From Minisyncoccia bacterium (GTDB taxonomy: Bacteria > Patescibacteriota > Minisyncoccia > Phycocordibacterales > UBA918), in NCBI GenBank assembly GCA_047639355.1, contig JBLIOC010000002.1, positions 1-61,107 on the forward strand: a stretch of DNA of 61,107 nt. The letters are read 5' to 3'. Under the pieces are notes generated by a model that was not told the origin of the DNA, ran no database searches, and saw only the letters and a program-made list of their open reading frames with translations. How positions within the stretch are numbered: the first letter of the stretch is position 1; every line of letters starts with the position of its first letter. This document shows, one piece after another, positions 1 to 49,386 of this stretch. The translations under genes were made by a program, and so were the position numbers.

Positions 1-29
1 AGAGCAGCTTTTTAAGATTATATTTTCGA

Positions 30-138
30 GGTCCACGAGGACTCGAAAAGCTTTTGAGTCAGATTGTGAGCGAAGCAAAACAATCTGTCCAAAAGGTATA
101 CTGGTCATGTAATGACCGAGATTCCTCGTGGACCCGCA
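30..138 (+). ncRNA. tRNA-minihelix-like structured repeat unit (copy A1)
   Basis: A 12-bp closing helix ggtccacgagga/tcctcgtggacc plus a cgca tail mimics an acceptor+T-stem. Inside are a GAAAAG junction, helix cttttg/caaaag capped by hairpin cagattgt-GAGCGAAGCAAA-acaatctg, a GTATACTG junction, and hairpin ggtca-TGTAA-tgacc. Confidence 0.6.
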
Positions 139-182
139 AAATTAGGAAGAATAAAACGGAGTTTTAGATGACATAATTTTCA

Positions 183-288
183 GGTCCACGTGGACTCGAA
201 AAGCTTTTGAGGTAGATTTGACTGAAAGGAGAATATATCCAAAAGGTATACTGGTCATGTAATGACCGAGATTCCTCATGGACCCACA
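183..288 (+). ncRNA. tRNA-minihelix-like structured repeat unit (copy A2)
   Basis: Same flanks as A1 (ggtccacgtgga/tcctcatggacc). The central hairpin is replaced by tagattt-GACTGAAAGGA-gaatata. The TATACTG junction and UGUAA hairpin are the same. Confidence 0.6.
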
Positions 289-332
289 AAATTCGGAAGA
301 ATAAAACGGAGTTTTTAATGACATAATTTTCA

Positions 333-439
333 GGTCCACGTGGACTCGAAAAGGTTGCCAGATATTTTGTGACGCAGGAGCAAAATATCTGGCAACCTAT
401 ACTGGTCATGTAATGACCGAGACTCCTCGTGGACCCGCA
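333..439 (+). ncRNA. tRNA-minihelix-like structured repeat unit (copy A3)
   Basis: Same closing helix as A1/A2. The central helix is ggttgccagatattttg-TGACGCAGGAG-caaaatatctggcaacc, followed by the CTATACTG junction, the ggtca-TGTAA-tgacc hairpin and the 3' end gactcctcgtggacccgca. Confidence 0.6.
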
Positions 440-443
440 TGTA

Positions 444-1833: not shown

Positions 1834-1962
1834 GCGCCGAGAGAAAGCTCTGGGAGAGCTTTCGTCAGGATTTGAAAAGCTTTTGAGGTAGATTTGACTA
1901 AAAGGAGAATATATCCAAAAGGTATACTGGTTGTGTAACAACCAAAATTCCTGCTCGGCACA
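1834..1962 (+). ncRNA. tRNA-like structured repeat unit Y1 (mimics the tRNA-Tyr 3' end)
   Basis: Helices gcgccgag/ctcggcac, hairpin gaaagctc-tggga-gagctttc, and helix caggattt/aaattcctg. The core (cttttg..GACTAAAAGGA..caaaag, GTATACTG, ggttg-TGTAA-caacc) is nearly identical to A2. The unit is followed by the terminator hairpin aaacggc-tta-gccgttttttt. Confidence 0.6.
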
Positions 1963-1992
1963 CAAATTTAAAACGGCTTAGCCGTTTTTTTT

Positions 1993-2193
1993 GCGCCGAG
2001 AGAGTGACTCAATGTCACTCACGTCAGGATTTGAAGAGGTTGCCAGACTATTTTCGACCGAAGGGAGAAAATATCGACTGTCAATTGAGTGAGTGAAATA
2101 GAAATTTATTTATATTTCCGAACGAAAGCAGACAGAAAGCTTTGCTTACAACCTGTACCGAAACTGTAAGTTTCAAAATTCCTACTTGGCGCA
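1993..2193 (+). ncRNA. tRNA-like structured repeat unit Y2 (expanded copy)
   Basis: Contains gcgccgaga..., hairpin gagtgac-tcaat-gtcactc, and helix caggattt/aaaattcct. Helix ggttg.../...caacc encloses tattttc-GACCGAAGGGA-gaaaata plus extra hairpins. It continues with GTACCG, gaaac-TGTAA-gtttc, and the 3' end cctacttggcgcaca. Confidence 0.5.
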
Positions 2194-2987: not shown

Positions 2988-5701
2988 ACAGCCTGCTTTT
3001 TCTTTGCTGTTGGTTTAGCAACTGTTTTAGCGGGCGTCTTACGGCGGCCTTTCTTCTTTATGTCGAAGTTGAGTTCTCCTTTTTTCATAGTCACCTTAAC
3101 GGTTCCACCTTGAAGCATTCCTTCACCCACCATCATATTGGCTATCGGTGTCAGAATCTTACTCTGAATTAGGCGTCGTAGTGGTCGAGCGCCGAATTTT
3201 GGATCATAACCTTCTTTAGCAAGATAGTCACGTGCATCTTTTGCAATAGTCAGAGCTATTTCCTTCTTTTTAAGACGAGCAACAACGTCATCTACCTGTA
3301 AATCAACAATCTGTGTAATCGCTTCTGGTGTAAGCAGGTCAAAAGTAATAATTTCATCAAGTCGATTGAGAAACTCTGGTCGGAAATACTGCTTCAAACT
3401 TTCAATCACCTTATCTTTGGCTTGTGTATATTGAGCGTTGTGTCCATGATCTACGGTAAAGCCAAAATTTGACATGCGGTCGATATGTTCGGCTCCAATG
3501 TTCGAAGTCATAATAATAACTGTATTTTTGAAGTTCACTTTCCGACCCTTAGCGTCAGTCAGATGACCAGAGTCGAGTACCTGCAAAAGAATATTGAATA
3601 CTTCTGGATGTGCTTTCTCCACCTCATCAAGCAAAATGACAGCGTAAGGTCGGTGACGGACTCGTTCAGTAATAGAACCTCCCTCGTCGTGACCAACGTA
3701 CCCTGGCGGTGAACCAATGATTTTTGAAACTGAGTGTTTTTCCATGTACTCAGACATATCGATTCGCAAAAGTGCATCAGGATCACTAAACATGAATTCT
3801 GACAACGCCTTTGAAAGTTCCGTTTTCCCAACTCCAGTTGGCCCTAAGAAAAGGAATGAACCAATCGGACGGTTCGGGTCAGCAATTCCTGCTCTAGCAC
3901 GTTTAATAGCGTCAGCTACCAACTTCACAGCATTATTCTGACCAATAACCTTCTCATGCAACACATCATCAATTCGTGCCAACTTCTGAACCTCAGCCTC
4001 GAGCATGCGTGAGACAGGAATACCGGTCCACCTAGATACGACCATAGCAATGTCTTCTTCGGTCACCTCTTCTTTTATTAGACGACGGGTACGTTGAAGT
4101 TTCTTAAGTCGCTTCAATTTAACATCAAGTTCTTTTTGCATTGAAGGCACCGTATCGTAACGAATTTCAGCAGCGCGAGTTAGGTCAGCAGCTGCTTCTG
4201 CATTGTCTGCCTCGACTCGTAGCTCATCAAGACTTTTCTTTATCTTACTGATTTCCCCAAGAGCTTTTTTCTCGTTATTCCATTTAGTTTCGAGATTTGA
4301 AGTAGTTTCCTTATATTCTCCGATTTCTTTCTCGATTTCTTTTATGCGGCCTTTAACTTTCTTTTTATTAGTAGTAGTTTCAACTTCTTTACGGAGGGCT
4401 TCGCGTTCTATTTCTAATCGGCGAATCAGACGGTCGGTTTCTACTAATTCTTCTGGTTTGTTCTCAAGTGAAATACGCATTGCGGCCGCTGCCTCGTCGA
4501 TGAGGTCCACAGCCTTGTCCGGCAAGAACCGGTCGGTAATGTAACGGGAAGAAAGATTTACTGCAGACACTAAAGCGTCGTCAGTAATCCTCACCCCGTG
4601 ATAAAGTTCATACTTTTCAGCTAGTCCTCGCAGAATCGCCACCGCGTCCTCGATATTTGGTTCATTTACAAAAACTGGTTGAAAGCGACGCGTAAGCGCT
4701 GGATCACGTTCTATATGCTTTTGGTACTCTTTTAGAGTGGTAGCGCCAATAACACGAATTTCGCCACGGGCGAGAGCGGGCTTCAACATGTTTGAAGCGT
4801 CCATTGACCCATCGGCCTGACCAGCTCCGACGATGGTGTGGAGCTCATCAATAAACAGGATGATTTGTCCATTAGCACTTTCGACTTCCTTCATAACAGA
4901 CTTAAGTCGTTCTTCAAATTCACCGCGGAACTTAGTACCAGCCACTAGTAAACCTAAGTCGAGTGAAAGGATTTCTTTTCCCTTAACTGATTCTGGCACC
5001 TGACCAAGTGCAATTTGCTGGGCCAGTCCCTCGGCAATTGCTGTCTTTCCTACTCCTGCTTCTCCGATAAGAACCGGATTATTCTTTGTGCGACGAGAAA
5101 GTATCTGTATGACTCGCTGGATTTCAATATCACGTCCTATAACTGGGTCAACTTTATTTTCCTGGGCGAGCTTGGTGAGATTGCGAGTGTACTTGGCAAG
5201 CGTTCGATACTTTTTGGGTGATTGCGCATCACTAACATTACTTTCACGTAATTCCGTAATCGCTTCCCTTACCCTTTTCTTATCAACGCTGGTTTGCTGC
5301 ATAATATCGATAGCGGGACCAGGATGCTCAAGAGCTGACACAAAAAGATGCTCTACTCCTACGTACGAATCACCTAACTCTTCGGCGAAGGTGCCAGAAA
5401 ACTCCAAAGCCTTGGCTAGCTCGGGGGTTAGATAGAGTTGGTAGGATTGCGAAATAGTTGTCTGTACCTCAGGTGTTTCTAGTCCTTCAAGAAGTAAATC
5501 GGTAAACGCAATCACATCGATATCGAGTTTATCAAGAATGGCTATTACAGCACTCTCGTCTTGCATAGCAAGAGCAGTCAAGAGATGAACTGAGCTGACA
5601 TGGTTTTGACCTCGTTCGATAGCTAGCTCATGAGCTTTTCTGATTGCTTCCTTGGCTTTGGTTGTAAAATTGTGAAAATTCGGCATATTCTTTATATTCA
5701 T
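2978..5701 (-). CDS. clpB: ATP-dependent chaperone ClpB (two AAA+ modules, coiled-coil middle domain) with a Lys-rich C-terminal tail
   Basis: 907 aa. It has a Clp_N-type N-terminus, Walker A motifs GEAGVGKT and GPTGVGKT, a long coiled-coil insert, and GARPLRR near the C-terminus. Confidence 0.95.
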
Positions 5702-9320: not shown

Positions 9321-9659
9321 ATGTCATCAGACCGAAAAATTCGCGCTACTGCACTCATCCAAGAATTGGCTGCTACTTTTATTAGACATGAAGCAAACAC
9401 TAATCCTCTAATTACAGTCACAAGTGTTGATATTTCTCCAGATTTAAGTCGAGCTATTATCTTTGTAACAACAATTCCAGAAGGACGTGAGTCGGACGCT
9501 CTAATTTTCCTTAAACGAAATGCGACCAACTTTCGTAATTTTCTTAAGAAGAAAATGCGTATAAAAGTAATCCCCCATATTGAGTTTATGATTGACGCAG
9601 GAGAGAAACATCGACAGCACATGGATGAAATGGTTAGAGATATAAATAACAAGGAATAA
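9321..9659 (+). CDS. rbfA: Ribosome-binding factor A
   Basis: 112 aa with an RbfA-like sequence (..LITVTSVDISPDLSRAIIFVT..). It sits immediately after infB, the conserved synteny. Confidence 0.85.
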   Translation: MSSDRKIRATALIQELAATFIRHEANTNPLITVTSVDISPDLSRAIIFVTTIPEGRESDALIFLKRNATNFRNFLKKKMRIKVIPHIEFMIDAGEKHRQHMDEMVRDINNKE

Positions 9660-9769
9660 TCATGTCAAAGTGTTAAAAAGGCAGTGGTCAATTCGGATCG
9701 CTGCCCTTTTACAAACAAAAGTTTTGAATAGCCGCCAGAATAATGCTACAGTACTGCGTACGAAACAAA

Positions 9770-9842
9770 GTCCTGGTGGCGAAGTGGTTAACGCATCGGT
9801 TTGCAAAACCGACACGCGTGGGTTCGAATCCCACCCAGGACT
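9770..9842 (+). tRNA. tRNA-Cys (GCA)
   Basis: Acceptor gtcctgg/ccaggac, anticodon loop ttGCAaa, T-arm gtggg-ttcgaat-cccac. Confidence 0.9.
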
Positions 9843-9871
9843 CACTTGCAAAAAGCAAGCGAATTTCACTC

Positions 9872-9957
9872 GCCCGGGTGGTGGAATCGGTAGACACGAG
9901 GGACTTAAAATCCCTTGCTATTCAAATGGCGTGCGGGTTCAATTCCCGCCCCGGGCA
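9872..9957 (+). tRNA. tRNA-Leu (TAA), long variable arm
   Basis: Acceptor gcccggg/cccgggc, anticodon stem aggga/tccct with loop ctTAAaa, T-arm gcggg-ttcaatt-cccgc. Confidence 0.9.
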
Positions 9958-9978
9958 CTACTATGCTAGACTTTTCTT

Positions 9979-10179
9979 ATGAAAATCCTTAAAGGTAATT
10001 TCGAAATACTTCTGTTGGCAATTGGCATTGTTTTTATATGGCGTGCTATATGGGGACTGTCAGACCTATATCTCTTTCCAGATAATCCAGAGTTGAGCTA
10101 TATTGTTTCAGCTTCTATGGGAATTATTATCTTGCTACTGACTGGAAAAAAGCCTAAGTCAATCGAGGAGCTGCTCTGA
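9979..10179 (+). CDS. Small two-TM membrane protein, hypothetical
   Basis: 66 aa with two hydrophobic segments. There is no recognisable family. Confidence 0.35.
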   Translation: MKILKGNFEILLLAIGIVFIWRAIWGLSDLYLFPDNPELSYIVSASMGIIILLLTGKKPKSIEELL

Positions 10180-10265
10180 CACAGATTGGTATTTTAACTA
10201 AAGTTTATTCTTGTGTAATTACTTGTTTTGTCCAAAAAATTATTGTACACTCTCGCAACACGCAT

Positions 10266-10338
10266 GCGCCCTTAGCTCAGTTGGTAGAGCAGCTCCCTCT
10301 TAAGGAGACGGTCCAAGGTTCGAGCCCTTGAGGGCGCA
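10266..10338 (+). tRNA. tRNA-Lys (CTT)
   Basis: Acceptor gcgccct/agggcgc, D-arm gctcagttggtagagc, anticodon loop ctCTTaa, T-arm caagg-ttcgagc-ccttg. Confidence 0.9.
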
Positions 10339-10382
10339 CACAGGTAAAACAAAACACTATTCATTTGAATAGTGTTTTGTTT

Positions 10383-10487
10383 TAGAAACTGAACTTCTTC
10401 AGTTTCGTGCCTGTGTGCGAGACGGAAGCATATATTTTGCTCGTTCGTAGAGCAAAATACAGCTGAGTCGGGGTCGAGAACACTTAG
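10383..10487 (+). repeat. B-type structured repeat, copy B1 ('empty site' version)
   Basis: tagaaa + hairpin ctgaa-cttc-ttcag + tttcgtgcctgtgtgcgagacgga + hairpin (atattttgctc/gagcaaaatac) + gagtcgggg|tcgagaacacttag. It is collinear with 11214-11409 except for a roughly 90-nt block. Confidence 0.5.
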
Positions 10488-10508
10488 TAGAATTTGCACG
10501 TAGTGCGA

Positions 10509-10535
10509 AATTATACTTAGTGATTCGTGACCACA
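10509..10535 (+). repeat. 27-nt direct repeat (left copy) flanking unit K
   Basis: aattatacttagtgattcgtgaccaca, repeated at 10654-10680 with 1 mismatch. Confidence 0.8.
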
Positions 10536-10540
10536 TTATC

Positions 10541-10647
10541 GGTATACATAATCAAGAGAGCCCGATTGAGACAGATTCGACCAGCAGGAGAATCTGTCCA
10601 ATTGGGATACTGGTCTCGTAGAGACAGAGACCCCTTGAGCCCTCACA
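10541..10647 (+). ncRNA. Structured repeat unit K (3' end resembles the tRNA-Lys 3' end)
   Basis: Helix ccgattg/caattgg capped by acagattc-GACCAGCAGGA-gaatctgt, then the GATACTG junction and hairpin gtctc-GTA-gagac. The 3' end gagaccccttgagccctcaca compares with tRNA-Lys gagcccttgagggcgcaca. The 5' boundary is uncertain. Confidence 0.45.
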
Positions 10648-10653
10648 ACGAGT

Positions 10654-10680
10654 AATTATACTTAGTGATTCGTGGCCACA
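10654..10680 (+). repeat. 27-nt direct repeat (right copy)
   Basis: aattatacttagtgattcgtggccaca. Confidence 0.8.
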
Positions 10681-10745
10681 AAATACAACCCAACACCCTT
10701 CCTAGCCCTCTACAAAAAATTCTGCTATACTCTGCCGGCAACCCT

Positions 10746-10827
10746 GCGCGGGTGGCGAAATTGGTAGACGCGCTAGTTTTAGGCACTAGTGGAGCAATCC
10801 ATGGAGGTTCAAGTCCTCTCCCGCGCA
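10746..10827 (+). tRNA. tRNA-Leu (TAG), long variable arm
   Basis: Acceptor gcgcggg/cccgcgc, anticodon stem ctagt/actag with loop ttTAGgc, T-arm ggagg-ttcaagt-cctct. Confidence 0.9.
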
Positions 10828-10859
10828 CAAAGAAAACTGCCCTTGTGGCAGTTTTTGTT

Positions 10860-10990
10860 TGCTCGGGAAGTAAAGTCTGGGAGACTTTACGTGAGGACTT
10901 GAAAAGGTTGCCAGCAACTTTGTGAGCGAAGCGATACAAAGTGGCGACAACCTGTACTGAATCTGTAAGATTCAAGTCCTCTCCCGCGCA
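10860..10990 (+). ncRNA. tRNA-like structured repeat unit L1 (carries an exact 26-nt copy of the tRNA-Leu(TAG) 3' end)
   Basis: Hairpin taaagtct-ggga-gacttta, and helix gaggacttgaa/ttcaagtcctc. Helix ggttgcc../..ggcgacaacc is capped by aactttgt-GAGCGAAGCGAT-acaaagt, followed by CTGTACTG and gaatc-TGTAA-gattc. The 3' ttcaagtcctctcccgcgcacaaaga is identical to 10808-10833. Confidence 0.65.
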
Positions 10991-10995
10991 CAAAG

Positions 10996-11070
10996 AGCGA
11001 GGCACGCAATCAACCGAACGTCTCAAATACCAGTAAATGAGCCGTTCGGTGGATTGCGTGCCTCGCTTTT
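10996..11070. other. 25-bp near-perfect inverted repeat (long hairpin with a T-run)
   Basis: agcgaggcacgcaatcaaccgaacg - 22-nt loop - cgttcggtggattgcgtgcctcgct tttt. Confidence 0.7.
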
Positions 11071-11213
11071 CTCTTTTAGAGAAAACCGTGTATCACACAG
11101 GCGTGCGTAGCACGCTACTCGTTTAATTTTTGCTGGAAAAAAGTTCGCGCAAATGCTAGAATTACTACCAAAGGTAAACAAAAAACCAGTCACAAAGTGA
11201 CTGGTTTTTTGTT

Positions 11214-11409
11214 TAGAAAGCAAACCGCTTTGCTTTCGTACCTATGTGCGAGACGGAGACATGTTTTTCTCCCCTTTTCTTGGGAGAAAAACAGTCGAGC
11301 CGGGTGAAAAAGTCTGAGAGACTTTTGCAAGACCTTGCCAGTCATTTTGGAGTCTGCAAACAGAATGGCGACGAGGTGTACAGAATTCGTAGAATTCGAG
11401 AACACTTAG
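11214..11409 (+). ncRNA. B-type repeat, copy B2, carrying an A/L-type core ('filled site' version)
   Basis: The backbone matches B1. It has an extra block at about 11306-11395: aaaagtct-gaga-gactttt, ccttgccagtcattttg-GGAGTCTGCAAA-cagaatggcgacgagg, GTGTACAG, gaattc-GTA-gaattc. The block is homologous to the L1 core. Confidence 0.55.
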
Positions 11410-12446
11410 CTTAAGTGTACCCTCGTCTTGGCAAAAGGCTGTCGCTTACGAACGTAAAGATTGTAATAACGCGCTATCACCTTCTTTGAACGTTGAGGAA
11501 GCTTATCTACCTGGGCACAACCCCATGAACAGTAGCCATTTCGTTTCTCTATACAATCACCACAACCGATGAAAAGGGTGTGGCAAATTTGGTTCTTGCA
11601 GTGGTAATGAGTATCGCTTTTTTCTCTTTTGCACAAATGACAAGTAGAAATAATTTCATCGCTGATACGTTCACCTAACCGTTCGTCAAATACAAAGTTT
11701 TTGCCCTTGAACTTATTTGGTAACCCTTGCTGATCTACCTGACGAGCATAGTCAATAATACCGCCCCTTAGGTGTCGCACGTCTTTAAAACCATTATGCT
11801 TTAGCCATGCGCTTGCTTTCTCGCACCTAATCCCACCTGTACAGTACATAGCGACCTTTTTGTCTTTATGCTCTTTAAGAAGTTCCGGAGTTTTCTTAAG
11901 CTCCTCACGAAACGTCACCACGTTAGGAGTGACAGCACCTTCAAAATGACCAACCTCAGCTTCGTAATAATTTCGCATATCTACAACAACAGCGTCCGGA
12001 TCGTCAACATAGGCATTCATTTCCTCAGCTGTAAGATACTGGCCGGTTTCGGTTACATCAAACGAAGAATCTTCTAGCCCATCGGCTACGATTTTTTCCT
12101 TAACTTTTACCGTGAGTTTAAAAAATGACGGTAACTCCCCTTCTTCAACTGCAATTTTATACGGGATTCTTTGCAGTTCAGGCTGTATTTGTATCCAAGC
12201 GTCATATTGGTCCCAATATACCTTTGGGACGTTCATTTGGGCGTTAATGCCCTCGTGAGCTACATATATTCGGCCCAGACAATCAAGGTCAGACCATTTT
12301 GCCAAGATACGACTACGGAACTCTTCTGGGTCAGCGATTTTTACATAACGATAAAATGACAAAGTGACACGAGGACGCATATCTGCGGCGGCCGCCTGGC
12401 GCTTTTCGGCACGACTTCTAAGGTCACGAGTTTCGCTGGTTTTCAT
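11406..12446 (-). CDS. trhO: Rhodanese-domain tRNA uridine(34) hydroxylase-like protein (TrhO/YceA, UPF0176)
   Basis: 346 aa with the rhodanese active-site loop YCTGGIRCEKA and the Cys-rich C-terminal tail typical of this family. Confidence 0.8.
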   Translation of the reverse strand: MKTSETRDLRSRAEKRQAAAADMRPRVTLSFYRYVKIADPEEFRSRILAKWSDLDCLGRIYVAHEGINAQMNVPKVYWDQYDAWIQIQPELQRIPYKIAVEEGELPSFFKLTVKVKEKIVADGLEDSSFDVTETGQYLTAEEMNAYVDDPDAVVVDMRNYYEAEVGHFEGAVTPNVVTFREELKKTPELLKEHKDKKVAMYCTGGIRCEKASAWLKHNGFKDVRHLRGGIIDYARQVDQQGLPNKFKGKNFVFDERLGERISDEIISTCHLCKREKSDTHYHCKNQICHTLFIGCGDCIEKRNGYCSWGCAQVDKLPQRSKKVIARYYNLYVRKRQPFAKTRVHLS

Positions 12447-12652: not shown

Positions 12653-14065
12653 ATGAATAAATTAACGAAAATCGGCCTGGCTTTAATAGCCATAGGCACA
12701 ATGGGCGCATCGGCGCTGATGATTGTGTATTGGAGCTTTATTTCTGACTACACGACTGCTATTGTAGCAGCTGTTACCCTAGTAATTATTTGCTACAACT
12801 TGACTGGAAGGCAAAGTGAGTTAAACAACCAACCTTCTACAGAAGATCCTGTGCGAGTTGGTAAGTACCTGAGTGTATTTCAGTGGAATCTCATAGTCCG
12901 GCCTGTAGTGAGCTTGACTGCAGGAACGATTGTAGCAGCTGTCTTTAAGTTCGCCGATTGGTACATAGAGACTAATGTTATGAACATTTGGATCTTTGCA
13001 GGAGTTGCTCTTGGCATGGCGGTGTTTTTTGCTCAAAGTGAAAACGAAGATGAAGTTGTACCAGAATCTTATGGAGCAATGCTGACATTCTGGGGTGTGC
13101 GCTTTAAGGCCTATCGTAAGGAAGGACGTTATCCCTGGACTGGCAAGCTTATTGGGTTTGGAAAGTCTCAAACTGTTCATTCAGAAGGAACTGACAAAGA
13201 TGGTTTTATAAAACTCCTCCCTTTTCCAATTTCAATCTGGAACCAAAAGGATCAGAAAGGGAAAGTGCAGTTGAAAAGTTCAGCACGCGATACTAGCGAG
13301 GTGACCACCACGCTTACACTTACCCTCCAACTGCTAGATCCTTACATTTGGATTGACTCTACTGACCCTGCGCTCGACTTAGCTGAACAAGCTAGGACAG
13401 CGTTCCGAGCTGCAATCGCCTTCTTTACTGGAGTTGATTGCACTTTAGTCAAAAGCGTATTTGCGAACTTGATGGTTGGACTTCCAATTCTTTCGGTATT
13501 TTTACCCAAAACAATTAATGGTTATCCGAAAGGTTCCATGCTAAGAGACAAAGGTGGAGTTTCCATGTATACGGTGATTAAGAAAGGATCTGACGAGACC
13601 TCTGTCAAAGAGAAATTTGCTAAACTAATAGACAGTGACGCTGACAGAATAATGCTAGCAGAATGTAATTCAACCCAGGATAGTAGCGTGGTTGATTTTT
13701 ACATTGCGAAAAGAACTGTTGAAACGGCTTTCGCTGATGTTCTCGATCGCCTTGGTGCCCATCTCGTCAAAGCGGCCGTAGGGAATATCAGCCTTTCAGA
13801 AGAGGTTACAAGAGAAGCTAATAAAGCGGCCAGTGAGACGTTCCAGCGCGAAAGTCAAGTTGCTAGTGCAAAGACTTTTGTCGAGGTAGGTAAAATAATG
13901 CAAGGAGTCAATGAGTTAAGTCTATCTGACTTTGACAAAGCTATTGCGGCAGCGCAAGACAATCCTAACGTAAAAGTTGTAGCAACCAGCGGCGGAGATG
14001 ATTCGCTCAAAGGAGCAGCAGCTACACTCGCAGCCCTAACAAATGGAGGAAATACAAATGAGTAA
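12653..14065 (+). CDS. Membrane protein with an SPFH/band-7 (flotillin/stomatin)-like domain
   Basis: 470 aa with about four N-terminal TM segments. The region VPESYGAMLTFWGVRF ... TLTLTLQLLDPYIW ... AEQARTAFRAAI ... ISLSEEVTREANKAASETFQRESQVASAK follows the SPFH pattern. This is recognition by eye only. Confidence 0.45.
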   Translation: MNKLTKIGLALIAIGTMGASALMIVYWSFISDYTTAIVAAVTLVIICYNLTGRQSELNNQPSTEDPVRVGKYLSVFQWNLIVRPVVSLTAGTIVAAVFKFADWYIETNVMNIWIFAGVALGMAVFFAQSENEDEVVPESYGAMLTFWGVRFKAYRKEGRYPWTGKLIGFGKSQTVHSEGTDKDGFIKLLPFPISIWNQKDQKGKVQLKSSARDTSEVTTTLTLTLQLLDPYIWIDSTDPALDLAEQARTAFRAAIAFFTGVDCTLVKSVFANLMVGLPILSVFLPKTINGYPKGSMLRDKGGVSMYTVIKKGSDETSVKEKFAKLIDSDADRIMLAECNSTQDSSVVDFYIAKRTVETAFADVLDRLGAHLVKAAVGNISLSEEVTREANKAASETFQRESQVASAKTFVEVGKIMQGVNELSLSDFDKAIAAAQDNPNVKVVATSGGDDSLKGAAATLAALTNGGNTNE

Positions 14066-14489
14066 GTGGATACGCCGTAACATATGGTTGATGCCATTTG
14101 CTGGAATCGCCATTGTAATACTACTAAAAGGGCTGGAGATTCCCTACACTTCTGTAGACACGATAACAAACTCTTACCTCCGGCTAATCACCGAGTACAC
14201 GGAAGAAGAGTACGGAACAGGAAGTACTGTATGGCTTTGGGCGGTAATCCCGGTTATTGTACTAGTGCTTTGGAAATTATTTATCTCCAAATCATCAAGT
14301 TCAGGAGGCGGGTTTGCGGCTGGAATGGTGAAGATTTTCGACTCAATTCTGGGAACAATTGTAGCCTTAGTAATTGGAGCAGGAGGTCTTGCTATACTTA
14401 GTGTAGTACTATTAATCATTTTGGCTATTCTTGATTACAATACGGATGTCATGGACAAACTATTAGTCTTTTGGCAGTCTATTTTCTAG
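14043..14489 (+). CDS. Small multi-TM membrane protein overlapping the SPFH-like gene (possible NfeD-like partner)
   Basis: 148 aa with about four hydrophobic helices. It has a 23-nt overlap with the upstream gene and is followed by a terminator hairpin at about 14520-14560. Confidence 0.4.
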   Translation: MEEIQMSKWIRRNIWLMPFAGIAIVILLKGLEIPYTSVDTITNSYLRLITEYTEEEYGTGSTVWLWAVIPVIVLVLWKLFISKSSSSGGGFAAGMVKIFDSILGTIVALVIGAGGLAILSVVLLIILAILDYNTDVMDKLLVFWQSIF

Positions 14490-14577
14490 TCAGACTCTCT
14501 CCTTTTGTTCTTTAACCAAATGACTCCCCAAGCGTACACGCTTGGAGGAGTCTTTTTTTATAAAAGTATTAATTTAC

Positions 14578-14925
14578 TTAGTCAGGAACATCTAAACCAA
14601 ATGTACCAGCGACAATTGAAAGGATTGAGAAAGCAGAAAGCATTATTACTAGGCCAATAATGCCATAGGTTATGTGGGACACTCCTGTTCGTCTTGCTTC
14701 TTCGTTAGCTGCATTCATAAAATACTCGGCGCAACCCCAGATAAACATCAAAAGGGCTACACCCGACAAAAGCGCGATAGTAGGGAACAAAATAATAGTA
14801 TTGAGCTTATCGACAAAGCTTTTAGCCACAGCGACATGACCGTCAGCCTCTGCTACTCCTGACAGAGTGACGAATGCCCCAACCTGAAAAAGTCCAGCCG
14901 TTAATAAATTTTTGAGTTTTTTCAT
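14578..14925 (-). CDS. VirB2/TrbC-like pilin-type small membrane protein
   Basis: 115 aa with a signal peptide and two TM helices flanking the charged loop NAANEEARRTG. Confidence 0.5.
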   Translation of the reverse strand: MKKLKNLLTAGLFQVGAFVTLSGVAEADGHVAVAKSFVDKLNTIILFPTIALLSGVALLMFIWGCAEYFMNAANEEARRTGVSHITYGIIGLVIMLSAFSILSIVAGTFGLDVPD

Positions 14926-15061
14926 ATTAAATCTTAGCGCTAGTGGTATTGCTCAGATTTTACCATAAACATAACTGAAGAATTTGATTATGCGACTTTT
15001 TACCAACAAAAAAAGCCGCAGCCGCGGCTTTTTTGATAAACTTTTGATAAACTAATGTTTG

Positions 15062-15457
15062 TTATGATGGGGTGGTGATGGTAATTCCACGAGGAATACT
15101 AACTGTATCTTCGTCAAGCCCTGTACTAGAGGTCAATAGGTTAACAATTCCCCAGAATACGATAATGAGTACGAAACCGAGAGTTGCGTAAATCATCAAA
15201 CTCTTTCCTTGTTCTTTGGCTTCTTCGTTAGCTCCACCAGCAATGAAGAACCTGAACATTCCCCAGACAAATACCAAGAAACCAATACCAATGATGAACG
15301 GAATGAGGACATCGTTAGCAAAAATGAGGATGTTCGTGAGAAGTGTTCCAAACGGATTTTCAGAACCTACGGGAAGTACGCTGTGAGTAGAGGCTGAAGC
15401 AAGCATAGGCAAAGCCATCATGCTACCTGCTCCTAATATATACCTAATCTTTTTCAT
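15062..15457 (-). CDS. VirB2/TrbC-like pilin-type small membrane protein (tandem paralogue 1)
   Basis: Start MKKIRYILGAG. The core LIPFIIGIGFLVFVWGMFRFFIAGGANEEAKEQGKSLMIYATLGFVLIIVFWGIVNLL is identical to the neighbouring gene. Confidence 0.55.
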   Translation of the reverse strand: MKKIRYILGAGSMMALPMLASASTHSVLPVGSENPFGTLLTNILIFANDVLIPFIIGIGFLVFVWGMFRFFIAGGANEEAKEQGKSLMIYATLGFVLIIVFWGIVNLLTSSTGLDEDTVSIPRGITITTPS

Positions 15458-33820: not shown

Positions 33821-34937
33821 TAATGGGGATGAGGTTAATTAAAGCCTGAACCGCAACCAGACAAAAACATACCCACTAAGGTACGCTAGGAATGTTAACA
33901 ACCTAGTAACCATTAGTGGATATGCACACACAGCATAAGTCTTTTAAACAAATACGGCAAATAGAAAGAGAGCGAATAGAAGAATTGATACAAGCAGACC
34001 AAACACCAAAACAAATAGCGCTTATTCTCGGTAGACACCCAGCAACTATTGTCAGAGAGATACAAAGAAACAGCAAAGGTGATGGTTCATACACAACCAT
34101 CTACGCCCAAAAGAAAACCATAGAACGACGCTACTCAGCTAAAGAGTCATCAAGAAAGATAGAGAATGATTCAGACCTAGAAACATCCATCATCGCTCTC
34201 ATGTCCGACACTGATCCTATGCGTGGAGACTGGTCTCCAGAAGTTATTGCTAACAGTTCTCTCAAAGGAAGAGTTTCACACACCACTATCTACGCCTGGG
34301 TTAAAAGGTCACGTCCAGAGCTGAAGAAGCTTCTGCACTTCCAGGGACGGAGAAGAGCAAGATATGGCTCTGTGGCTACCCGACTGCACCGTGAGATGTC
34401 TCTACCTTCGATTGAAGATCGACCTCAGAGTGTGGAGTCTAGGAGTCATATTGGACACTTTGAGGGTGACACAGTTATCGTCAATGGTGGCAGAATACAT
34501 ACGTTGGTAGAACGGAAAAGTCGGTTTCTGATTGGTAGTTTAATTACTCACAAAGGAGTTGGTTTAGCTATAAAGATCTCTGAAGACGCAGTGGAAAAAC
34601 TGTCTGTTCTACCACTGCAATACAGACAGACTATTACTTATGATCAAGGTAGTGAGTTTGCTTGGTGGGATGAGATTGAAAAAGGACTTGATGGTACGAA
34701 GATATATTTTGCTCACCCACACTCACCTTGGGAACGCGGGACTAACGAACGACATAATGGATTGATGCGACGATATATTCCAAAGAAGAAATACTCTGGT
34801 ATCATTACTCATGAAGATGTTGCAGAGACGGTTAGGAGAATAAACCATCGTCCGCGGAAGATTCTTAACTGGCGTACTTCTTGTGAAGTTTTTGGGAAGT
34901 GTTGCGGTAGAAGCTTTAATTAACCGTATCCCCGTTA
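33821..34937 (+). mobile_element. IS30-family insertion sequence (about 1.1 kb)
   Basis: Terminal inverted repeats are taatggggatgaggttaattaaagc (33821-33845) and the reverse complement of gctttaattaaccgtatccccgtta (34913-34937), matching at about 21/25. It contains a single transposase ORF whose stop lies in the right IR. Confidence 0.8.
33916..34923 (+). CDS. IS30-family DDE transposase
   Basis: 335 aa with an N-terminal HTH, and a DDE/rve core with GHFEGDTV, TYDQGSEF and HSPWERGTNERHNGLMRRYIPK. The ATG alternative is at 33922. Confidence 0.9.
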   Translation: MDMHTQHKSFKQIRQIERERIEELIQADQTPKQIALILGRHPATIVREIQRNSKGDGSYTTIYAQKKTIERRYSAKESSRKIENDSDLETSIIALMSDTDPMRGDWSPEVIANSSLKGRVSHTTIYAWVKRSRPELKKLLHFQGRRRARYGSVATRLHREMSLPSIEDRPQSVESRSHIGHFEGDTVIVNGGRIHTLVERKSRFLIGSLITHKGVGLAIKISEDAVEKLSVLPLQYRQTITYDQGSEFAWWDEIEKGLDGTKIYFAHPHSPWERGTNERHNGLMRRYIPKKKYSGIITHEDVAETVRRINHRPRKILNWRTSCEVFGKCCGRSFN

Positions 34938-36280: not shown

Positions 36281-36410
36281 TGCTCCGAGCAGAAAGTGGA
36301 GCTTTCGGGCAGGGTTCGAAGAGATGGAGTTTATCGCACGAGCGTTAGTGAAGTACGATACGACATCTTTACCGTTCCTGTATGGAAAGAAATTCCTGCC
36401 GCCGGAGCAA
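36281..36410 (+). ncRNA. tRNA-like structured repeat unit (divergent copy)
   Basis: Perfect 7-bp acceptor-like helix tgctccg/cggagca, hairpin gaaag-tggag-ctttc, T-stem-like ggcagg/cctgcc enclosing gttcgaag + helix agatg/catct + ttcc-TGTAT-ggaa. Confidence 0.5.
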
Positions 36411-49038: not shown

Positions 49039-49175
49039 CGAGAGGAAGCGGATAAAGGTGTATAGATACCTTTAGTCAGGACTCGAAAAGCTTTTGAGGT
49101 AGTTTCGACCACAGTGAGAATAAATCCAAAAGGTATACTGCTTGTGTAACAAGAGAAATTCCTGCCGCCGGAACA
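49039..49175 (+). ncRNA. tRNA-like structured repeat unit (copy at 49 kb)
   Basis: Hairpin aaaggt-gtatagat-accttt, and helix caggactc/gaaattcctg. The core cttttgag..GACCACAGTGA..tccaaaag, GTATACTG, cttg-TGTAA-caag is nearly identical to Y1/A2. The 3' end cctgccgccggaaca matches 36395-36409. Confidence 0.55.
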
Positions 49176-49386
49176 AAACTACACAACATAAATTACAAAA
49201 ATAACGGTCGTATCCATATTACGGAGGACCGGGCTCCATAATACGTGTACTTCGTTAAAGGGTACTGTTCACACTGGAGTTTTATGATCAGTTTCGCTGT
49301 TGTATGAGTCTTTTAATTTACAGTCAATTTTGATGAAACATTTTGGAAGTTTCGTGCTTTAGGTTCGAACCTGATATAATTATTTT

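Follow-up and report, generated by a model that had tools for sequence, protein, structure and literature searches.

A Parcubacteria family of tRNA-linked-repeat-type units includes one downstream of tRNA-Leu(TAG), whose scaffold is supported by covariation and whose closing helix matches the tRNA

The DNA analyzed here, henceforth the window, is a stretch of 61,107 nucleotides from a Minisyncoccia bacterium. On its forward strand, the gene for tRNA-Leu(TAG) is followed by a 131-nt unit, L1, which ends in a copy of the 3′ end of that tRNA and lies between two terminator-like hairpins, T1 and T2. It is well supported that L1 is a unit of the type described in Escherichia coli as tRNA-linked repeats (TLRs), with a covariation-supported scaffold and a closing helix matched to the tRNA, and that it is one copy of a lineage-wide Parcubacteria family. 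The locus contains the following features.

10746–10827, plus strand: tRNA-Leu(TAG), with no encoded CCA (Rfam RF00005, 55.6 bits; ARAGORN gives 10746–10828).
10808–10833, plus strand: first copy of a 26-nt repeat, made up of the 3′ part of the T-loop, the 3′ strand of the T-stem, the 3′ strand of the acceptor, the discriminator A (10827) and a 6-nt trailer, CAAAGA.
10833–10859, plus strand: T1, a weak A/U-rich terminator-like hairpin with a T-run, between the tRNA and L1 (fold of 10828–10862, −13.3 kcal/mol).
10860–10990, plus strand: unit L1, 131 nt (minimum free energy, MFE, −56.1 kcal/mol, z = −7.1; match of covariance model R1 at 10893–10981, 97.9 bits).
10860–10868 with 10982–10990, plus strand: P1 of L1, acceptor-like, with one T.C mismatch (predicted).
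10870–10890, plus strand: P2 of L1, a hairpin (predicted).
10893–10900 with 10974–10981, plus strand: P3 of L1, T-stem plus part of the T-loop, whose bases are now paired (predicted, with covariation).
Between P3 and P4, plus strand: J3/4 of L1, GAAA (predicted).
About 10905–10953, plus strand: P4 of L1, a long hairpin (predicted, with covariation).
About 10954–10958, plus strand: J4/5 of L1, GUACU (predicted).
10959–10973, plus strand: P5 of L1, with a GUA triloop (predicted, with covariation).
10971–10996, plus strand: second, exact copy of the 26-nt repeat, at the 3′ end of L1, with the discriminator-equivalent A at 10990.
10997–11077, plus strand: T2, a very strong terminator-like hairpin, followed by TTTTCTCTTTT (fold of 10991–11080, −53 kcal/mol, z = −11).

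The 26-nt sequence ttcaagtcctctcccgcgcacaaaga occurs exactly twice in the window. Dinucleotide shuffles gave no match to it, even when up to three mismatches were allowed, and none is expected by chance. Upon allowing one mismatch between the copies, the repeat grows to 28/29 nt (10805–10833 versus 10968–10996). The segment copied by L1 (segment "a") consists of the last 20 nt of the tRNA (10808–10827), and the identity continues for 6 nt past the discriminator. The original prediction, which was made from the sequence letters, had recognized this exact repeat and located its first copy correctly, but it placed the second copy at 10965–10990, that is, 6 nt upstream of its actual position, and had the identity end 3–4 nt past the discriminator. 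As nearly all tRNA trailers here start with CA, and several of them with CAAAG, the identity of the trailer carries little weight.

L1 also contains the complement of the segment that it copies. The complementary strand gaggacttgaa, which had been noticed in the 5′ half of the unit, lies at 10893–10903, and the hairpin taaagtct-ggga-gacttta, noticed along with it, lies at 10871–10889. An extra 5′ arm, tgctcggga (10860–10868), pairs with the acceptor 3′ strand except for the T.C mismatch. The closing helix of these units consists of a 3′ strand that copies T-loop, T-stem, acceptor strand and discriminator of the tRNA (17–22 nt) and a 5′ strand that is its complement. The 5′ arm pairs even with T-loop bases that are unpaired in the tRNA (CTTGAA/TTCAAG, CTCGAA/TTCGAG and ATTGAA/TTCAAT). 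Acceptor and T-stem strands stand in tRNA order and tandem duplication of tRNA genes is common, which is what would be expected of a decayed tRNA gene duplicate, i.e., a pseudogene with no function of its own. That explanation is effectively excluded: no tRNA is found in L1 by either ARAGORN or Rfam, and its fold includes the non-tRNA hairpin P2 and has no D or anticodon arm; the T-loop bases of the unit are paired with a dedicated complement; and the P2/P4/P5 scaffold, with its invariant loop bases and covarying stems, is common to units that belong to different tRNAs.

The units fold in a common order, with a terminator-like hairpin followed by P1, P2, P3, a long P4, and P5 with its GUA triloop; the three-way junction is that of P3, P4 and P5, and P2 is often added to it. 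When a plain MAFFT alignment of 11 units was analyzed with RNAalifold, P3, P4 and P5 were obtained, with compensatory changes at 24 of the 31 pairs. The covariance model R1 was built from this alignment and produced 52 matches in 290 kb, 10 of them in the window and all these 10 on the plus strand. In the R1 alignment, 89.5% of the cells are paired, versus 58.8% in the shuffled alignment and 36–47% when the partners are slid, and two-sided changes are present at 30 of the 31 pairs. As the R1 alignment is fitted to the model, the plain MAFFT/RNAalifold result is the independent check. Unpaired bases are conserved as well: the AA of GAA in J3/4, the A of UAC in J4/5 and the whole GUA of L5 are invariant, the C and U of UAC are conserved at 98 and 91%, respectively, and the G of GAA falls within 98–100%. 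There are 58 G.U pairs versus 25 A.C pairs, and all 31 R1 matches with a tRNA at most 1.2 kb upstream are co-oriented with that tRNA. Taken together, co-orientation and G.U excess favour the tRNA-sense strand. When Rfam 15 was searched, only tRNAs reached the gathering score in the window and nothing credible appeared at E ≤ 5; the related contigs gave the same result. The three-way-junction scaffold is a candidate new class of structured RNA, absent from Rfam.

Several candidate identities for the unit were tried and rejected. Known ribozymes (hammerhead, twister, hatchet and others) gave no Rfam matches, and no CUGAUGA-type strand connects P5 to P3. For a pseudoknot between UAC of J4/5 and GUA of L5, the variants CAC and AAC keep GUA unchanged and the connecting loops would be of 0–1 nt. 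Box C/D-like guides and CsrA-type GGA sponges, suggested by the GA...GA apex and by GGA loops, were discarded as the motifs are inconsistent across units. A scan of genome contigs with the motif AAGGTT...AACCTRTACYG...YGTAR returned 11 loci, none of them a credible family member; 10 are in unrelated taxa, and the remaining one, L010, had no match in the R1 search.

For comparison with relatives, we used nine Parcubacteria loci (labels within L003–L024) retrieved through homologues of the translation factor IF-2. The gene order ClpB, NifS, IF-2, RbfA, tRNA cluster and TrhO is kept in nine loci, and the same tRNAs are present again in the IF-2-linked loci of the relatives. Taking as criterion the 13 nt at the 3′ end of a tRNA with at most one mismatch within 1 kb, 20 of the 49 tRNAs in these loci have at least one same-strand downstream copy of their own 3′ end (one to four copies), and the same census gave neither upstream copies nor contiguous antisense copies. 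In L004, tRNA-Leu(TAA) is encoded on the minus strand, and there too the unit is downstream with respect to the direction of the gene. The identity block starts in most units 17–22 nt before the discriminator, that is, inside the T-loop. Units follow tRNA-Trp, -Tyr, -Lys, -Leu(TAG), -Leu(TAA), -Leu(CAA) and -Ala, with ends matched to each; for tRNA-Ala, the core motif with matching ends was found in the metagenome contigs L028 and L036.

The match to the tRNA is kept within each genome. The tRNA-Leu(TAG) ends in ...TCCCGCGCA in the window, L004 and L022 and in ...TCCTGCGCA in L006, L008 and L021, and in each genome the 3′ copy of the unit bears the local version. Where present, the acceptor 5′ arm changes along by a compensating G>A (GCTCGGGA in the window versus GCTCAGGA in L008). 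For tRNA-Trp, the T-stem reads CGGAG in L004 and CCTCG in L008, and in the units the 3′ copy and the 5′ arm change accordingly; the Lys and Leu(TAA) units likewise track the variants of their tRNAs. An RNAduplex matrix of cognate versus non-cognate combinations discriminated poorly because the T-arms of different tRNAs are alike, and the T-stem variants were therefore read directly. The earlier suggestion of an RNA mimic kept in step with its tRNA by gene conversion finds support here, as 3′ copies and 5′ arms track the variants of Leu(TAG), Trp, Lys and Leu(TAA).

The remaining units of the window were located from sequence, repeats and R1 matches.

28–440, plus strand: W1–W3, three tandem units with a 150-nt period (R1 matches 37–127, 190–277 and 340–428).
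1843–2193, plus strand: Y1 (about 1843–1962) and Y2 (about 1992–2193), after tRNA-Tyr (1716–1799) (R1 matches 1866–1953 and 2025–2184).
10407–10680, plus strand: units after tRNA-Lys (10266–10339) (sequence, repeats, R1).
10407–10535, plus strand: a second type of scaffold, type B, after tRNA-Lys.
10554–10636 (R1 match), plus strand: K1, a degenerate unit of type A after tRNA-Lys.
10654–10680, plus strand: a 27-nt repeat of the 3′ module of type B.
11233–11440, plus strand: M1, a composite unit past T2, its 5′ part being of type B and its core of type A (R1 match 11320–11405).
36281–36406, plus strand: orphan unit 1, ending in ...TTCCTGCCGCCGGAGCA (R1 match 36310–36398).
49040–49176, plus strand: orphan unit 2, ending in ...TTCCTGCCGCCGGAACA (R1 match 49077–49164).

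The closing helix of W1–W3 matches the 3′ end of tRNA-Trp of relatives (L008, 1938–2009), the tRNA itself being located beyond the start of the window. Y1 and Y2 each have a small terminator-like hairpin just 5′, and the 3′ end of M1 matches no tRNA. The two orphan units have nearly identical 3′ ends, TTCCTGCCGCCGGA[G/A]CA, which match no tRNA of the window; upstream of each come a terminator-like hairpin and a short stretch that ends in ...CGGAGCA, and an Rfam search found no tRNA, tmRNA or other Rfam gene upstream of either. The type-B scaffold (...GGGGTCGAGAACACTTAG-hairpin-ACTTAGTGATTCGTGAC) has the same overall topology as type A and no Rfam match. It is found in the window at 10407–10535, 10654–10680 and 11233–11300 and in L004 at 13594–13737, and it occurs also without a tRNA-matching end.

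The genes around the locus encode ClpB, a NifS-like desulfurase, a short IF-2 of 501 aa, RbfA and TrhO (346 aa). The closest relatives of this IF-2 in a homologue search are annotated as Candidatus Kaiserbacteria, Nomurabacteria and Parcubacteria. Judging from these relatives and from the gene order that it has in common with L003–L024, the window is assigned to a genome of the Parcubacteria, within the candidate phyla radiation (CPR); its G+C content is 40.8%. Three other regions were noted. A gene for a sugar transferase (Bac_transf-like) is present as two open reading frames (ORFs) in different frames (2260–2562 and 2586–2891), its counterpart in L003 being intact (210 aa, 4575–5207); the split may reflect a frameshift, a pseudogene or an assembly error. 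At 11134–11215, a promoter-like site (TGGAAA, 17 nt, TAGAAT, with an upstream TG) is followed within 20 nt by a hairpin with a T-run (11180–11213); Rfam matches there are all sub-threshold, and the region could correspond to a very short transcript or to a mere terminator. Finally, an ORF of 335 aa (33916–34923), about 800 nt downstream of tRNA-Glu, contains only an HTH_38 domain (IS30-type N-terminal fold). It is the sole transposase-like signal in the window and lies 22 kb from L1.

The system that these units most resemble in layout is that of the TLRs of E. coli. Described in earlier work (Egan and Landy, 1978; Rudd, 1999; both cited in PMC8144298), TLRs number 22 in all, spread over ten loci with one to five units at each (PMC8144298). 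They include rtT/RttR in the tyrT-tyrV operon and RrA, RrB and RrF after 5S rRNA, and their last 18–19 nt are the 3′ end of the upstream tRNA or rRNA (PMC8144298). Those of the rrn operons, located between two terminators, arise by read-through and undergo processing; RrA, RrB and RrF bind Hfq and CsrA in vitro, no other function being ascribed to E. coli TLRs, and the authors suggest that the repeated end serves RNase processing (PMC8144298). Upon reading the E. coli tyrV locus, we found that its 178-nt units contain GGGGAAGGAT, the complement of the copied ATCCTTCCCC. A closing helix formed by a copy and its complement is therefore common to the E. coli TLRs and the L1 family.

Other likenesses concern position and dimensions. 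In both systems the units come right after a stable-RNA gene and share its orientation. The copied 3′ end is of 18–19 nt in E. coli and of 17–22 nt here (20 + 6 for L1); there are one to five units per locus in E. coli and one to four per tRNA here, as in the tandem W1–W3 of the window; and the tandem period is 178 bp at E. coli tyrT and 142–182 nt here. The dual-terminator layout of L1, between T1 and T2, is that of the small RNAs of the E. coli rrn TLRs. The Rfam family rtT gave no match at E ≤ 5 in the region 9500–11700 and none at gathering score in the window. The similarity between L1 and the TLRs is one of architecture, without detectable homology. There are also differences. The units described here have a covariation-supported three-way junction with conserved GAA, UAC and GUA, and a second scaffold type; they are hosted by a CPR bacterium with CCA-less tRNA genes; they are far denser, as they follow about 40% of the sampled tRNAs; and their scaffolds swap between tRNA loci while the ends stay tRNA-specific, the core being found also away from tRNAs. 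We found no description of such units in CPR bacteria in the literature.

The reading that we favour is that of a structured RNA obtained by read-through; it would reuse a tRNA end-processing helix, and recombination with the tRNA would maintain the match. As a whole, we assign to it a probability of about 55%. The core of L1 starts 65 nt past tRNA-Leu(TAG), and our reading of the sequence leaves no room for a promoter between T1 and L1. The unit would be transcribed together with the tRNA, by read-through of the weak T1, and transcription would stop at the strong T2, a terminator-like end of the tRNA-L1 block with single-base bulges between its stems (19, 8 and 4 pairs). The unit would then be released by tRNA end-processing enzymes as a discrete RNA of about 131 nt. 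Likely enzymes would be RNase P at the 5′ end and RNase Z, or another 3′ nuclease, after the discriminator, followed by the CCA-adding enzyme; the host tRNA genes have no encoded CCA. Excision by this machinery is proposed because the helix of the unit reproduces the acceptor/T-stem context, with the same discriminator and trailer. Similar use of an acceptor-like end helix stacked on a T-stem-like helix is found in RNAs with tRNA-like domains, such as tmRNA, the YrlA Y RNAs and viral tRNA-like structures, and in structural terms the closing helix of the unit would be a plausible substrate for tRNA end-processing enzymes. Those RNAs differ, however, in having a true T-loop and a fixed identity, whereas in the units the T-loop bases are paired and the helix copies the upstream tRNA; no Rfam match to tmRNA or Y RNA-like families was found in the units.

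Unequal crossing-over or gene conversion, with the tRNA 3′ end and the 3′ copy of the unit as partners, would uphold the identity with the tRNA, and the same exchange would expand and contract the arrays. As the helix is needed, the 5′ arm would then adapt through compensatory changes. The invariance of the junction and loop bases suggests binding of the released RNA by a partner, either a protein or an RNA.

Several observations weigh against the read-through RNA. Either strand of L1 folds equally well (z = −7.1 versus −7.25). P1 plus P3 amount to about 16–19 bp before the junction, versus 12 bp before the T-loop in a tRNA minihelix, and recognition by RNase Z or the CCA-adding enzyme is uncertain because the helix is longer than an acceptor/T minihelix. 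P1 is imperfect or absent in some units, e.g., the Leu(TAA) units of L006 and L008. Each unit in the arrays is preceded by a terminator-like hairpin, strong in some cases (L022), so distal copies would be poorly transcribed. Furthermore, the core is found in tandem arrays without tRNA-like ends (L026 205–423, L027 2391–2569, L032 1756–2115 and L034 3540–3810), with periods of 93 nt (L027) and 120 nt (L026) and no tRNA nearby. Turnover belongs to the same side of the balance: units that come and go rapidly and swap scaffolds between loci resemble selfish repeats more than they do a housekeeping RNA.

Units are indeed gained, lost and re-scaffolded between close relatives. In L003, the closest relative (IF-2 92% identical), L1 is truncated: its first 35 nt or so are followed by a segment of about 2.2 kb (13090–15300) that encodes a 690-aa ORF without Pfam match, and the remainder of L1 is gone; T2 and M1 are also absent there. 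In the L1 orthologue of L004 the tRNA-matching arms are kept and the internal scaffold is of type B, and in L006 the counterpart of L1 is a composite unit. L021 has two copies of the L1 counterpart and L022 has four. The window has Y1 and L003 lacks it, the junction falling within the repeat; a homologous deletion between repeats would look the same. Units are either single or in arrays of two to four identical copies (in L008, three of 142 nt and two of 155 nt; in L022, four of 182 nt). Similarity among scaffolds is independent of tRNA identity: the nearest scaffold to L1 is that of a Trp unit of L008 (80%), and the nearest to Y1 is that of W2 in the same window (93%). A chimeric unit was observed in L021 (9991–10078), with 5′ arm and scaffold 99% identical to those of the neighbouring Leu(TAG) unit and a 3′ end of Leu(TAA) type.

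Such behaviour could be that of selfish DNA, i.e., non-autonomous palindromic repeats, similar to miniature inverted-repeat transposable elements (MITEs) or REP sequences, that occupy tRNA 3′ flanks, take their ends from the tRNA by copying or conversion, and have an RNA structure that is incidental or self-serving. Like REP/BIME, ERIC, Correia and MITE elements, the units are short, multi-copy (10 in 61 kb, 52 in 290 kb), hairpin-rich, intergenic, often near terminators and variable between strains. The absence of Y1 and the truncation of L1 in L003, the different L1 scaffold in L004, the tRNA-independent scaffolds, the chimeric unit of L021, the identical tandem copies, the arrays without any tRNA and the equal folding of both strands would all be accommodated. 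In contrast to those elements, the units are strictly co-oriented with the upstream tRNA (31/31), have ends matched to the neighbouring tRNA and keep invariant unpaired bases in a three-way junction. These invariant bases and the excess of G.U over A.C pairs both point to a strand-specific constraint, probably at the RNA level. There is no family-wide terminal inverted repeat; the terminal inverted segments differ for each tRNA, and no single transposase would recognize them. Apart from the HTH_38 ORF, no transposase partner was found, nor was a RAYT or recombinase partner, in the scanned ORFs of the window and the nine loci. We consider selfish DNA an unlikely explanation.

The original prediction had also considered that the repeat could be an att-like core. 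An att-type direct repeat of the tRNA 3′ segment is present at both ends of the L1 insert. Starting in the T-loop and reaching slightly beyond the tRNA 3′ end, the identity block matches T-loop-type att cores. Williams is said to have defined, in 2002, sublocation classes of tRNA att sites that include cores of this type. Under this explanation, the repeats would be attL/attR-type scars of elements that enter the region from T-loop to 3′ end of tRNA genes, and L1 would be a remnant or a mobilisable mini-cassette. The presence/absence polymorphism of Y1, with its junction in the repeat, would fit. So would a plain duplication in L024 (13745–13811) of the last 30 nt of tRNA-Leu(TAG), with one mismatch and 68 nt downstream of the gene; it has no scaffold and is a different, simpler kind of 3′-end repeat. 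However, in every orthologous locus the repeats enclose 68–318 nt without any ORF, and comparison of these loci gave no larger integrated element with the repeats at its borders. In 40 ORFs of the window (Pfam) and in the 10 ORFs around the L1 locus (NCBIfam), no integrase, resolvase, reverse transcriptase or RAYT was detected, and the gene tables of the nine relative loci call no recombinase within about 10 kb. BLAST against phages and plasmids and scans of viral contigs gave no match to the units. The scaffold is common to at least six tRNA species, the same scaffolds being found with matched ends at seven tRNAs (those listed above), and the complementary 5′ arm with its compensatory changes would be left unexplained. 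A simple attL/attR scar does not account for L1, and integration scars in general are very unlikely, whereas a recombinational origin at the tRNA 3′ end is possible.

Folding of the complete tRNA-T1-L1-T2 transcript (10746–11080) bears on a further explanation. Both the predicted MFE and the centroid fold are strand-swapped: the 5′ half of the tRNA pairs with the 3′ copy of L1, and the tRNA's own 3′ end pairs with the 5′ arm of L1. L1 might accordingly be a cis-acting regulator, in which strand exchange within the read-through transcript would hold back or redirect maturation of the cognate tRNA. The predicted fold is exactly the one required, and such a regulator would explain why both copy and complement are needed and why they match the neighbouring tRNA. 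Nevertheless, the two folds are nearly iso-energetic by construction, and co-transcriptional folding favours the tRNA forming first. The orphan units have no tRNA and some units lack the acceptor complement. Moreover, we know of no splicing or resolving activity for such a strand-swapped fold in bacteria. Regulation in cis is for these reasons improbable. A broader proposal is that the units would form a hitherto undescribed class of element with re-programmable ends: a conserved structured scaffold would move from one tRNA locus to another, and its closing helix would be made over to copy the 3′ end of the local tRNA. This might happen by RNA-guided or recombination-guided templating, or else the unit might be a tRNA-specific strand-exchange regulator of pre-tRNA maturation. 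We consider it rather unlikely; if true, re-programmable ends or strand-exchange regulation would provide a mechanism for the 45-year-old puzzle of the TLRs.

E. coli TLRs have been known since 1978 and have no accepted function or origin. With the L1 family, the TLR design recurs, without detectable homology, in a very distant lineage with streamlined genomes. As the units are far commoner here, have a covarying scaffold and co-evolve with each tRNA, the architecture would be selected or actively generated rather than accidental. The presence of units at many tRNAs, in many genomes and with two scaffold types provides a comparative data set on which models of a processing mimic, a selfish repeat or a regulatory element may be weighed.

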